The notes beneath the pieces are model-generated. The model had not been told where the DNA came from. It did no database searches and saw nothing but the letters and a program-made list of their open reading frames with translations. A stretch of DNA of 64,000 nt from Chlamydiales bacterium (GTDB lineage: Bacteria > Chlamydiota > Chlamydiia > Chlamydiales > CALTSX01): contig JBOFEG010000041.1 of NCBI GenBank assembly GCA_051647685.1, positions 33,952-97,951 on the forward strand. The letters are read 5' to 3'. This document shows, piece by piece, positions 57,954 to 60,596 of the stretch. Position 1 is the stretch's first letter, and each line of letters starts with the position of its first letter. The position numbers and the translations under genes are program-made.

Positions 57954-58715
57954 ATGGTAGATGCAATGGGTAAATATAAAAAGTCTTTGGTTTTGCTAGA
58001 GAGTGTCGACTCTACTAATGATTGGGCTCGCGCAAATCTCTCGAGTTTTTGTAACCAAAGCTTTACAACTGTTCAAGCCATGCAACAAACCCGAGGGAAA
58101 GGAATCTCAGGGGCCTGGCATTCTCCAGCGAACGTAGGGATGTATAGTAGTTATGTCACATTTGAACTAAGCAACGTAGATTTGAGTCTTATTGCCTACA
58201 TTGCGGCTACGTCTATTTTGCAGATACTCGATGAAATGGGGTTAACTGCTCAAGTCAAATGGCCTAATGATATTCTTATCTCAGGTAGAAAAATTGGTGG
58301 CGTGCTTTGCGAAACGGCCTCGCATGGAGAGAAAACAGCTGTTATTTTAGGGATTGGTATGAATATAAATACAGAGCGGGAAGAGCTGGATAGAATTGAT
58401 CAACCCGCAACTTCTCTTTTTCTAGAGAGCGACTCTATGTATTGTCCTGCAGAAATTGCAGATCGACTCAGTGATCGTCTCATGGCAAATTGTGATGGAT
58501 ATCTGCAGTGGGGTTTTACTCCCTTCCATTCTTTTTTAGAGAATCGCTTGGCCTACATTGGAGAATTTGTTCAGTTTACCACTTCTACTCAATCGATTTC
58601 TGGAAAAGTAATTGGAATTGCCATCGATGGCGCATTGCAATTACAAATATCTACCGGAGAAATTCTTGCTCTTTATAGTGGACGAATTAAGGCTTTGCCT
58701 CGCGGATCTCTGTGA
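57954..58715 (+). CDS. birA: Biotin--[acetyl-CoA-carboxylase] ligase (no N-terminal HTH domain)
   Basis: 253 aa. Contains QQTRGKGISGAWHSP (the GRGRxGR-type biotin loop, degenerate) and KWPNDILISGRKIGGVLCE. An alternative start is the ATG at 57966. Confidence 0.82.
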   Translation: MVDAMGKYKKSLVLLESVDSTNDWARANLSSFCNQSFTTVQAMQQTRGKGISGAWHSPANVGMYSSYVTFELSNVDLSLIAYIAATSILQILDEMGLTAQVKWPNDILISGRKIGGVLCETASHGEKTAVILGIGMNINTEREELDRIDQPATSLFLESDSMYCPAEIADRLSDRLMANCDGYLQWGFTPFHSFLENRLAYIGEFVQFTTSTQSISGKVIGIAIDGALQLQISTGEILALYSGRIKALPRGSL

Positions 58716-59451
58716 GGTCTGGGATAACCTGGATAGTTGGGTATACTCGCTGCTGCAAGATGGATTGTATAGCTTGCAAAGTAGCTCCCGTCGCAGAGTA
58801 ACAAGAGACACAACTGCCCAAGTAACGAATGGTGACTTGATTTCCCTCAATAGAAATTACTTCAACTCCTCCCTCATCTAACGCAATAAATGGTCTTATT
58901 TCTTTTTCTATTACTGCTTCAATAGCATTTCGTTTTTGTATTGCCGTGTATTGTAGGAATTCAGTATGGATTTCTCCGGGATCTACAACAGTAGAAACAG
59001 GGGATGGGATATAATCGAGAGACAATTCAATATCGCGACACTGCACAAGTGCACCATCCAACGCTTGAAAAATCATTGGCACGTATATAGATTCTCGCTT
59101 TGGAAAAGCGACAACATTTGGACTATCTCGTAAATATTCTTCTAAAAACTCTCTTGTAATATGACTCGCTTGATTGTAATTTTTTCTTATGATCAATGAA
59201 CAGAGCGCTTCAAGAAGTCCAATTACGACAGGAGGTGAAAAGGTTTGGAATTTTGTATCAACAATGATGCCATCTGTTTCATCTATAATGATATAGATCT
59301 TGCACCAGATGGACTCGTCGATAGCTTTTCCCATAACCCATCTCATTTCTTTTGAGCGCGTTTGGTCCTCTAAAATGATTCCTGCATGGTATCTAGTTCG
59401 TATGCGTTTTTGTAATTTTTTGCTATATTGCTGCCACAATAACTCTGTCAT
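58687..59451 (-). CDS. NifU-like protein: degenerate IscU-like N-domain + Nfu-type C-domain
   Basis: 254 aa. The C-terminal Nfu domain retains CxxC (IRPFIALDEGGVEVISIEGNQVTIRYLGSCVSCYSATGATL). The N-terminal half aligns with the IscU scaffold, but FKTFGCGSAIAS is replaced by FQTFSPPVVIG. Confidence 0.72.
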   Translation of the reverse strand: MTELLWQQYSKKLQKRIRTRYHAGIILEDQTRSKEMRWVMGKAIDESIWCKIYIIIDETDGIIVDTKFQTFSPPVVIGLLEALCSLIIRKNYNQASHITREFLEEYLRDSPNVVAFPKRESIYVPMIFQALDGALVQCRDIELSLDYIPSPVSTVVDPGEIHTEFLQYTAIQKRNAIEAVIEKEIRPFIALDEGGVEVISIEGNQVTIRYLGSCVSCYSATGATLQAIQSILQQRVYPTIQVIPDLTEIREAKP

Positions 59452-60596
59452 AATATACCCATTACCGTGCGGAGAGATTGGACTGCACCTCGCATGCGAT
59501 GAACTATTTCTATAAAATCTTCCTCCTTCATATCAAGTGTAAAGCTACAGTGAATAGATTGATTTGCCAAATCGGCACACTCTGGACAAGTCGATAGAAT
59601 CTTGCCAAGGCTCTCATAGTTTCGATTTCCGATAAACGCATATATTCCGACATCCTGTAAAACGTAGAGCAGCGCTTCATTGTGAATTCCTGGAAAAGCT
59701 ATAACAGATGTATTGGAGAGTTGTTCAACGCGGGGAAATAGGATTTGTGCAGAGGGCAAGGCATCGACGAGCTTCTTCTCTAGAATGGATTTGTATCTGG
59801 CTATCTCTAAACAAGTGTATTCTTGCGCGTTTGAGATAGTCTGTAGAGCAAACCCAAGAGCCACTAGTAAACTGGGTGCATGAAATTTATTTTTTTCTTT
59901 CCAAATTCCAGGAATACTAATTTCCTTCTTTACCAAGGTAATAGCTATTCCAGATAATCCATAAATATTTCGTCCGTCAAAAGAGAAAAAATCTGCGGGC
60001 AAACTAGAGAATGGAAAAATCATTTGGCCAAGTATTTGTGACGCTTCTACGTGAAAAAAAATACCCGTCCCTCGGCAATATTCACCAATATCCCAAATCG
60101 GGTAGACAATTCCAGTAACCGGATCGGCAAAAGGGAGCGAAACAAAAGCAGTCTTTGGAGAGATGGCTTTTTCAACTTCTTGTTTAGTGATCTGCCCTTT
60201 TGCATTCGGGGCTATTTTTTTTATGACACACCCAAGACTTATAAATGGTTGTAGGACTTTCTCTGTTTCTCTATCAAAAGCAGATATGAGAACGATATTT
60301 TTCCCTGTAGGGTAAATAAAATTTTTATAGATTGCATAAAAAATTGAGAATATGTTTTCGCTATATGAAGATGTGGCATATAGATAATCGTTTGTATCTG
60401 CTCCAATCGCTGTAGTTATCTGCTCCCGAGCATTATTAATCTTTTCCTCGCACGAAAAAGATTGATAAGGAGCATGAAGGTTTGAGCGGTATTGCAATTG
60501 AAAATCAGTTGCTCTTTTCCATACTTCTTCAGAAGTTTGCGATGCAAAATTAGCATCTAAGTAGTATTTTTTAGACATAATCTTTCTTTGTGCCAC
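59448..60596 (-). CDS. Class V aminotransferase-fold protein, NifS/IscS-like but lacking canonical catalytic residues
   Basis: 382 aa, collinear with IscS (YLDANFASQ..; GADTNDYLYATSS; HVEASQ). SFSGHKIYGPKG is SFDGRNIYGLSG here, with no PLP lysine. SSGSAC is FIGNRNY here, with no active-site cysteine. Confidence 0.75.
   Translation of the reverse strand: MAQRKIMSKKYYLDANFASQTSEEVWKRATDFQLQYRSNLHAPYQSFSCEEKINNAREQITTAIGADTNDYLYATSSYSENIFSIFYAIYKNFIYPTGKNIVLISAFDRETEKVLQPFISLGCVIKKIAPNAKGQITKQEVEKAISPKTAFVSLPFADPVTGIVYPIWDIGEYCRGTGIFFHVEASQILGQMIFPFSSLPADFFSFDGRNIYGLSGIAITLVKKEISIPGIWKEKNKFHAPSLLVALGFALQTISNAQEYTCLEIARYKSILEKKLVDALPSAQILFPRVEQLSNTSVIAFPGIHNEALLYVLQDVGIYAFIGNRNYESLGKILSTCPECADLANQSIHCSFTLDMKEEDFIEIVHRMRGAVQSLRTVMGIL

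Follow-up and report, generated by a model that had tools for sequence, protein, structure and literature searches.

An inactive cysteine desulfurase paralogue has been described in Archaeoglobus fulgidus, whose IscS-IscU system is represented by PDB entries 4EB5, 4EB7, 4HVK and 4R5F; the comparison extends to IscS1 of Methanosarcina acetivorans. For A. fulgidus IscS, which is inactive and lacks the lysine that forms the Schiff base, a purely scaffolding role was proposed (PMC7585200; PMC8918507). Its loop cysteine is retained and serves as a ligand to the cluster on IscU; the protein binds pyridoxamine phosphate, and its IscU partner has all ligands (PMC8918507). In NfuA of Escherichia coli and Azotobacter vinelandii, a degenerate A-type N-domain that has lost a cysteine required for cluster binding targets clients, and a [4Fe-4S] cluster is bound and passed on by the CxxC motif of the Nfu domain (PMC8593673). 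The plant plastid proteins NFU1-3 (AtCnfU, PDB 2Z51) also join an active CxxC Nfu domain to a degenerate module, and Helicobacter pylori relies on a housekeeping NIF system, NifS-NifU, that is catalytically complete. In this study, we analyzed a 64-kb stretch of DNA (the window) from a metagenome-assembled genome (MAG) of a member of the Chlamydiales, in which two adjacent minus-strand genes encode a NifS-like and a NifU-like protein. Judged by their sequences, the two appear to form a non-catalytic desulfurase paralogue combined with an Nfu carrier that bears a degenerate domain.

The NifS-like open reading frame (ORF) extended over 59448-60596 (382 aa) when read from a GTG codon, the length given by the first-pass annotation, and over 59448-60578 (376 aa) when read from an ATG. 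The ATG at 60578 (MSKKYY...) is the start used in all relatives and in the NCBI record of an identical protein, MGL4348886.1 (376 aa), and the 382-aa frame is therefore probably six residues too long; the product is most likely the 376-aa protein and not the one initiated at GTG 60596. The annotated location and the collinearity with IscS/NifS thus stood, while the annotated length probably did not. The gene at 59448-60578 was delimited by the ORF itself, the Pfam match to Aminotran_5, NCBIfam models, an AlphaFold2 (AF2) model, Foldseek, and the starts of relatives. The NifU-like gene (58687-59451, 254 aa) was delimited by its ORF, Pfam matches to NifU and NifU_N, and an AF2 model with a mean predicted local distance difference test (pLDDT) score of 82.6. 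Its start overlaps the NifS-like stop in an ATGA at 59448-59451, in agreement with the earlier statement that both minus-strand ORFs are full length and overlap by 4 nt. NCBI names the first protein [quoted passage not shown] and the second (MGL4348885.1) "NifU family protein".

The NifS-like protein retained the class-V, or fold-type I, aminotransferase fold. Pfam Aminotran_5 (PF00266) matched it at E=1.4e-29, covering only the N-terminal two thirds, and the AF2 model (pLDDT 86, predicted TM score 0.86) resembled H. pylori NifS in Foldseek with a TM of 0.83-0.87. Both phmmer and a comparison of a family profile with PDB sequences aligned it over its full length to H. pylori NifS and E. coli IscS. 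Scores against the NCBIfam desulfurase models were far below their cut-offs, at 126.3 bits vs 530.75 for NifS (TIGR03402) and 81.7 bits vs 643.2 for IscS, with the match to the SufS model likewise far under its threshold.

The loss of catalytic and ligand residues was judged by three alignment methods (phmmer, profile hidden Markov model (HMM), and MAFFT). At the Schiff-base site, HMMER placed SFDGRNIYGLSG (aa 205-216 in the 382-aa numbering; 59949-59984, minus strand, as for all segments below) opposite SFSAHKFHGPKG of H. pylori NifS and SFSGHKIYGPKG of E. coli IscS, with His-Lys replaced by Arg-Asn; this segment was defined by the alignments to 5wt2 and 1p3w and by column statistics. The position of E. 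coli K206 is occupied by Asn (SFDGRN), and no Lys stands in or beside the motif anywhere in the clade to which the window protein belongs. The persulfide loop survives as AFIGNRNY (aa 320-327; 59616-59639; alignments and column counts), which HMMER set opposite SSGSAC and which has no Cys at the E. coli C328 position. The block of the stacking histidine, AEH in H. pylori NifS and TEH in E. coli IscS, was aligned by HMMER with SAFDR (within SAFDRE, aa 105-110; 60267-60284; alignments and column statistics), so that the His104 equivalent is Arg. The equivalent of the substrate-binding Arg354 is His, within SIHCS (aa 347-351; 59544-59558; alignments and column counts), and that of the phosphate-binding Thr76 is Ser in the window protein and variable among relatives. 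When a bona fide desulfurase (P0023) was included in a MAFFT alignment, Pro fell at the Asn155 equivalent and Glu at that of Asp180. In all, the window protein has R, S, E, Q, D, R and H in the columns of H104, T76, D180, Q183, S203, H205 and Arg354, and, among the residues that contact pyridoxal phosphate (PLP), none but the acidic one at position 180 is widely retained in the family.

Residue counts at the catalytic columns were obtained for 90 locus-derived homologues and, separately, for 149 cluster representatives, and are given here in that order. The canonical Cys328 was found in 0/90 and 1/149, Arg354 in 0/90 and 0/149, and His104 in 0/90 and 1/149, the last column being variable in the Chlamydiaceae-like clade and Glu or Asp in most environmental chlamydiae. 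These results bore out each substitution that the first-pass annotation had listed for this protein: the PLP-binding SxHK without its lysine, the persulfide loop FIGNRNY without its cysteine, and AFDR in place of the TEH block. None of the three methods placed a catalytic Lys or Cys at the expected positions. An alignment slip or chance was ruled out as the source of the losses, the methods being concordant and the column counts covering 90 + 149 homologues.

A lysine was present at column 206 in 6/90 and 11/149 homologues, always in a DG[DE]K context, and this, together with the NCBI name, would favor the view that cysteine desulfuration, or some other PLP chemistry, persists in the NifS-like protein by way of non-canonical residues that the alignments missed. 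We consider this very unlikely. Neither the window protein nor any other member of its clade has a lysine in the motif or beside it, and column 206 is among the most variable, as expected of a position free of constraint. The loss is also a joint one, taking in the loop Cys, the stacking His, the substrate Arg, and the Thr and Ser that bind phosphate, and the NCBI name is a generic fold-level label for a protein that scores 126 bits vs 530.75 as a NifS. As the AF2 and Foldseek match was confident and the residues were lost under all alignments, the NifS-like protein appears to have kept the fold of NifS and lost the chemistry of canonical desulfuration.

The NifU-like protein showed the same combination of a retained fold and missing residues in its N-terminal domain (aa 1-140; 59032-59451), a degenerate IscU fold recognized by its pLDDT (>90), Foldseek, a profile match to IscU, and conservation. 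Pfam NifU_N matched it only marginally (22.5 bits vs a cut-off of 22). Foldseek aligned the domain with ISCU/IscU at a TMt of 0.82-0.85, its root-mean-square deviation from E. coli IscU in the IscS-IscU complex (3lvl_A) was 2.2 A, and the family profile matched IscU proteins at E of about 5e-6 to 1e-4 (best 1q48, E=5e-6). FQTFSPPVVIG of the NifU-like protein lay opposite FKTYGCGSAIA of IscU, and the alignment with H. influenzae IscU placed no Cys at C37 and Pro/Ser at C63. A further alignment, to an E. coli IscU sequence, serves as a lead only; it agreed with the PDB-based alignment. At the columns of E. coli C37, C63 and C106, a Cys was found neither in the window protein nor in any of 79 homologues (0/79).

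The C-terminal domain presented the opposite picture. Pfam NifU (PF01106, the Nfu domain) matched it at 63.6 bits vs 27 over profile positions 1-67 of 67, and the family profile matched plant and human NFU domains at E=2e-11 to 2e-7 (2z51 AtCnfU, 2m5o human NFU1, and 1veh). This Nfu-type domain spans aa 170-245 (58717-58944), as judged by the full-domain Pfam match and the profile hits to 2z51 and 2m5o, and its CxxC is intact: C214-V-S-C217, within GSCVSCYS (58795-58818), with both cysteines invariant in 79/79 homologues. In the AF2 model, the loop that carries the CxxC is floppy and the linker between the two domains is partly disordered. The linker (aa 141-169; 58945-59031; pLDDT <50 at residues 147-158) stands in place of the central four-Cys [2Fe-2S] domain of true NifU, which was not found in the NifU-like protein; about 30 residues occupy that position. 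A family-HMM alignment to A. vinelandii NifU gave no counterpart of the central domain either, which is a lead only. Against the model of NifU proper (TIGR02000), the protein scored 69.2 bits vs a cut-off of 273.3.

The first-pass annotation had described an IscU-like N-domain in which GCGSAIAS became SPPVVIG and the HCS cysteine was absent, followed by an Nfu domain with a CxxC, and all three statements held in the alignments, the predicted fold, and the homologue counts. The only cysteines conserved among the 79 homologues were C214 and C217 (100%), C138 (99%) and C84 (92%), none of them at an IscU ligand position. C84 (59194-59211) and C138 (59029-59046) are non-canonical and lie in the dead IscU-like domain, where C138 sits in a C-x-D-[IL]-P motif. 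At the N-terminus, W6, Y9 and S10 were 91-99% conserved. The CxxC of the Nfu domain is thus the only intact Fe-S element of the pair. To the extent that sequence can decide, IscU-type cluster assembly is ruled out for the NifU-like protein, as canonical desulfuration is for its NifS-like neighbor.

Compared with the described systems, the pair resembles A. fulgidus IscS-IscU in that a type I desulfurase homologue without the Schiff-base Lys is encoded with an IscU-type partner, and the chlamydial profile matched A. fulgidus IscS at E=1e-35. Unlike the archaeal pair, it retains few PLP contacts, no loop Cys, and none of the three IscU ligands, and its partner protein has an additional Nfu domain; it therefore resembles A. 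fulgidus IscS in kind, not as the same variant, and goes further. The NifU-like protein shares with NfuA an N-domain derived from a cluster protein and now degenerate, followed by a C-terminal CxxC Nfu domain. In NfuA, however, the degenerate domain has the A-type carrier fold and not that of IscU, and there is no dedicated gene for a dead desulfurase partner. Among solved structures, AtCnfU matched the Nfu domain best (E=2e-11), and its second, Nfu-like domain matched weakly, with no Cys opposite the CxxC. Its degenerate module is a duplicated Nfu domain and not an IscU domain, and it too has no NifS-like partner. By the sequence features that define each class, the pair would qualify neither as a cysteine desulfurase, nor as an IscU scaffold, nor as a true NifU, and would qualify as the bearer of an Nfu domain.

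The closest active relative by sequence and structure was the H. pylori NifS-NifU system, in which the genes have the same order, nifS then nifU. The family profile scored 276 bits against H. pylori NifS, 161 against E. coli IscS, and about 85 against SufS, and the best NCBIfam models for the two proteins were NifS and NifU_proper, both with scores far below their cut-offs. The catalytic Lys and Cys, the three Cys ligands of the IscU domain, and the central [2Fe-2S] domain are all present in the H. pylori system and missing from the chlamydial pair. As the closest profile match was to NifS of the H. pylori type, the pair looks like a degenerate NIF system. It likely descends from an H. pylori-like NifS-NifU system for Fe-S assembly, with the H. 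pylori state being the ancestral one.

The same losses were found in approximately 240 homologues across the phylum Chlamydiota. The homology search recovered one clade at 64-99% identity and distant members at 25-32% in which the same residues were lost. A scan of species-representative genomes yielded 80 loci, nearly all labelled Chlamydiota (Parachlamydiaceae, Rhabdochlamydiaceae, Simkaniaceae, and others), with a few labelled Verrucomicrobia or uncultured bacterium, and an exhaustive profile search added at least 150 further cluster representatives at E <1e-68. Some labels deserve caution. The record titles of six loci (L033, L011, L021, L059, L073, and L077) look unreliable, several MAGs labelled Verrucomicrobia carry the chlamydial-type operon, and the NifS-like gene of a MAG labelled "Chlamydia trachomatis" is 32% identical to that of the window, the level of environmental chlamydiae.

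The NifU-like gene directly followed the NifS-like gene on the same strand in all 77 loci whose sequence continued, abutting it in 74 and slightly offset in 3; the contig breaks off in the other 3 of the 80, which were left out of the count. In one Logan contig, the two are joined in a natural fusion, a 613-aa NifS-like::NifU-like protein (P0165; L085, 5001-6842) that is flanked by gpmA as elsewhere. Because it comes from one contig and one sample, in which an assembly or frameshift artefact is possible, the fusion was taken as supporting evidence only. The WxxYSKKL motif at the N-terminus of the NifU-like part is degenerate in this protein.

Linkage extended to a third gene. In the window, a gpmA-type His_Phos_1 gene with an intact RHG motif (60557-61267, minus strand) lies directly upstream of the NifS-like gene and overlaps its ATG start by 22 nt, opening a run of overlapping genes that continues through the NifS-like and NifU-like ORFs. 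A gpmA-like gene was found in this position, on the same strand, in 73 of the 75 testable loci across Chlamydiota, and the conserved unit is therefore gpmA-nifS*-nifU*, where the asterisks mark the degenerate genes. These positions suggest a conserved three-gene operon. The sole minus-strand promoter-like site lies upstream of gpmA (61305-61277), which is weak evidence, since promoter and terminator counts were not above chance.

Dead paralogues often regulate active relatives, and the NifS-like protein could likewise be a regulatory pseudo-enzyme that modulates an active desulfurase (SufS or another NifS paralogue) or some other partner, leaving the NifU-like protein as an independent, plain Nfu carrier. 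Active desulfurase paralogues do exist in chlamydiae (PMC3899948; PMC6171736). We regard this explanation as improbable, as the NifS-like gene is tied to its NifU-like neighbor, and not to sufS, by invariable adjacency, by the shared ATGA, and by the fusion found in nature. A tblastn search of the 64-kb window with two bona fide desulfurases found only the NifS-like gene, and the same search found no intact class-V gene within 10 kb of the pair in the 80 related loci (0/80). Further, the family is of type I, and its score of only about 85 bits against SufS, a type II enzyme, makes a heterodimer with SufS unlikely.

Selection on the two genes was estimated with Nei-Gojobori rates from four syntenic contigs, of which only the two pairs with unsaturated dS were used; pairs from distant clades were left out because their dS was saturated. 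In pair 1 and pair 2, respectively, dN/dS was 0.195 and 0.138 for the NifS-like gene and 0.152 and 0.207 for the NifU-like gene, with dS of both genes at 0.28-0.37 in the two pairs. These values fell between those of rodA (0.077 and 0.067) and birA (0.289 and 0.268) at the same loci, and ribosomal proteins S10, S7 and S12 gave about 0 to 0.15. Both genes are under purifying selection, with a constraint like that of a modestly conserved enzyme.

Two decaying pseudogenes that are still open by chance would also have lost catalytic residues in both genes, and would evolve faster, as seen in the 61-66% amino-acid identity between clades vs 84% for rodA. This explanation is refuted for practical purposes by the full-length ORFs in about 240 lineages across the phylum, the dN/dS of 0.14-0.21, the confident structure predictions, and the invariance of the CxxC and many other positions. 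The dN/dS comparison across relatives that had been proposed as a check came out as constraint on both genes, and the residue losses, the confident folds, and the phylum-wide adjacency agreed with the first-pass view of a retained pseudo-enzyme/scaffold pair over pseudogenes. That the role of the pair has changed is an inference from these observations.

A pair retained by selection need not be a mere scaffold. The former PLP pocket may have been repurposed to bind a metal or another ligand, with a role, for instance, as iron donor or sensor when clusters are built on the partner, or to catalyze a PLP-independent reaction. In environmental chlamydiae, the His104 column is Glu or Asp (72/90 and 99/149), Asp180 is kept (69/90 and 124/149), Gln183 is replaced by His (51/90 and 60/149), Ser203 by Asp, Asn or Glu in most, and a His stands two residues past the former Lys in 71%. 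The pocket in these members is thus acidic and contains His, non-canonical yet not random, and the conserved C84 and C138 of the NifU-like partner could form part of a new site. In the Chlamydiaceae-like clade, which includes the window, the corresponding columns vary freely: R, S, K, V or L for His104; Q, H, Y or R for Gln183; N, H, Y or L for Lys206; and about ten different residues for Thr76. This free variation argues against a ligand site across the family and is what a structural pseudo-enzyme would show, and no known motif was matched. We therefore regard a repurposed pocket as unlikely.

The explanation that we favor, with moderate confidence, is that the phylum-wide pair is kept by selection as an Nfu carrier that is fed by the SUF machinery and docked, through its dead IscU domain, on a platform formed by the dead NifS dimer. 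The Nfu domain would act as a late Fe-S cluster carrier and receive its clusters from SUF. The dead IscU domain would serve as a docking module, its conserved N-terminal helix holding the carrier on the NifS-like dimer, and the dimer would be a non-catalytic platform, structural or client-recruiting. Such a platform would have parallels in E. coli NfuA, which is directed to its clients by a degenerate A-type domain, and in Archaeoglobus IscS, for which a scaffold-only role was proposed.

Docking through the IscU domain was suggested by both proteins. In IscU, the N-terminus and helix alpha1 are essential for binding to IscS (PMC2854127), and this region aligns with the conserved W6, Y9 and S10 of the NifU-like protein. 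The segment of the NifS-like protein that aligned to helix alpha8 of IscS, a contact of IscU, belongs to one of the better-conserved stretches, with F301, P302 and G303 shortly before the segment and L310 and L313 inside it or at its end. A supply of clusters from SUF would be in line with the gene content of the phylum: sufB and sufS belong to the core gene set throughout Chlamydiae (PMC6171736), sufBCD occurs together with sufS in C. pecorum (PMC4137089), and another NifS paralogue is a chlamydial core gene (PMC3899948). A-type carriers are absent from nearly all Planctomycetes-Verrucomicrobia-Chlamydiae bacteria (PMC2682760), which leaves Nfu as a plausible main carrier.

Several points weigh against the docked-carrier explanation. 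The complex between the NifS-like and NifU-like proteins is one that we infer, and the sole fusion was seen on a single contig from a single sample. The two IscU molecules of an IscS-IscU heterotetramer are approximately 150 A apart (PMC2854127), and at this spacing the platform alone would not unite two Nfu CxxC motifs for a bridging cluster. The residues of the putative interface are also conserved in active NifS/IscS, and may simply be core residues. Docking leaves C84 and C138 unexplained, and the conserved coupling to gpmA has no place in the model. Finally, SUF is presumed for the present genome from its occurrence in other chlamydiae; the 64 kb that are visible held no other class-V enzyme.

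On a bolder proposal, the pair may be a Chlamydiota-specific and previously unrecognized Fe-S trafficking module, in which a dead desulfurase dimer and a dead IscU adaptor position Nfu for its clients, while C84 and C138, the acidic pocket, or both handle a cluster, persulfide or iron, with the whole being co-expressed with gpmA. We put this forward as a tentative and rather unlikely possibility.

Beyond the pair, the window contained several other features. At the 3' end of the gene run, birA is convergent and is followed by rodA. Two small minus-strand ORFs come after rodA (55764-56123, 119 aa; 56199-56435, 78 aa), and relatives have comparable unannotated small ORFs between rodA and rpsJ (64-130 aa, no Pfam hit on record). 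Upstream of the run, the gap between rluB and gpmA is 110 bp in the window (61268-61377) and holds variable cargo in relatives: a HicA-toxin-like gene with small ORFs, HTH/SocA_Panacea with Abi_C, or an LRR-NEL (E3-ligase-type effector) gene (L081, 8020-9109; L083, 6290-9151; L084, 7395-9086). The gap seems to be a hot spot of variation. The window also contains a complete minus-strand rRNA operon (16S, 23S, 5S; 28055-33019), in a region with a G+C of 0.45-0.47 vs about 0.36 elsewhere in the window, and tRNAs lie at 44902-44988 and 49247-49319.

No prior description of this chlamydial degeneracy was found in the full-text literature, in which name-based queries were partly swamped by unrelated words. 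Excerpts of a 2022 review on the diversity of desulfurases treat A. fulgidus IscS as an inactive paralogue and mention no chlamydial one (PMC8918507). Database labels for the two proteins (class-V PLP enzyme and NifU family) are such that metabolic reconstructions can count a working NIF or ISC system, and our finding corrects annotation throughout a phylum that includes major pathogens. Enzymes for isoprenoid and lipoate synthesis are expected among the Fe-S enzymes of chlamydiae. If the pair is the remaining step of Fe-S delivery in the absence of A-type carriers, it would be a lineage-specific and probably important component of chlamydiae. The pair also offers a natural example of two interacting proteins that are both without their chemistry and whose partnership was apparently kept, extending the only textbook case, the IscS of Archaeoglobus, one step further.

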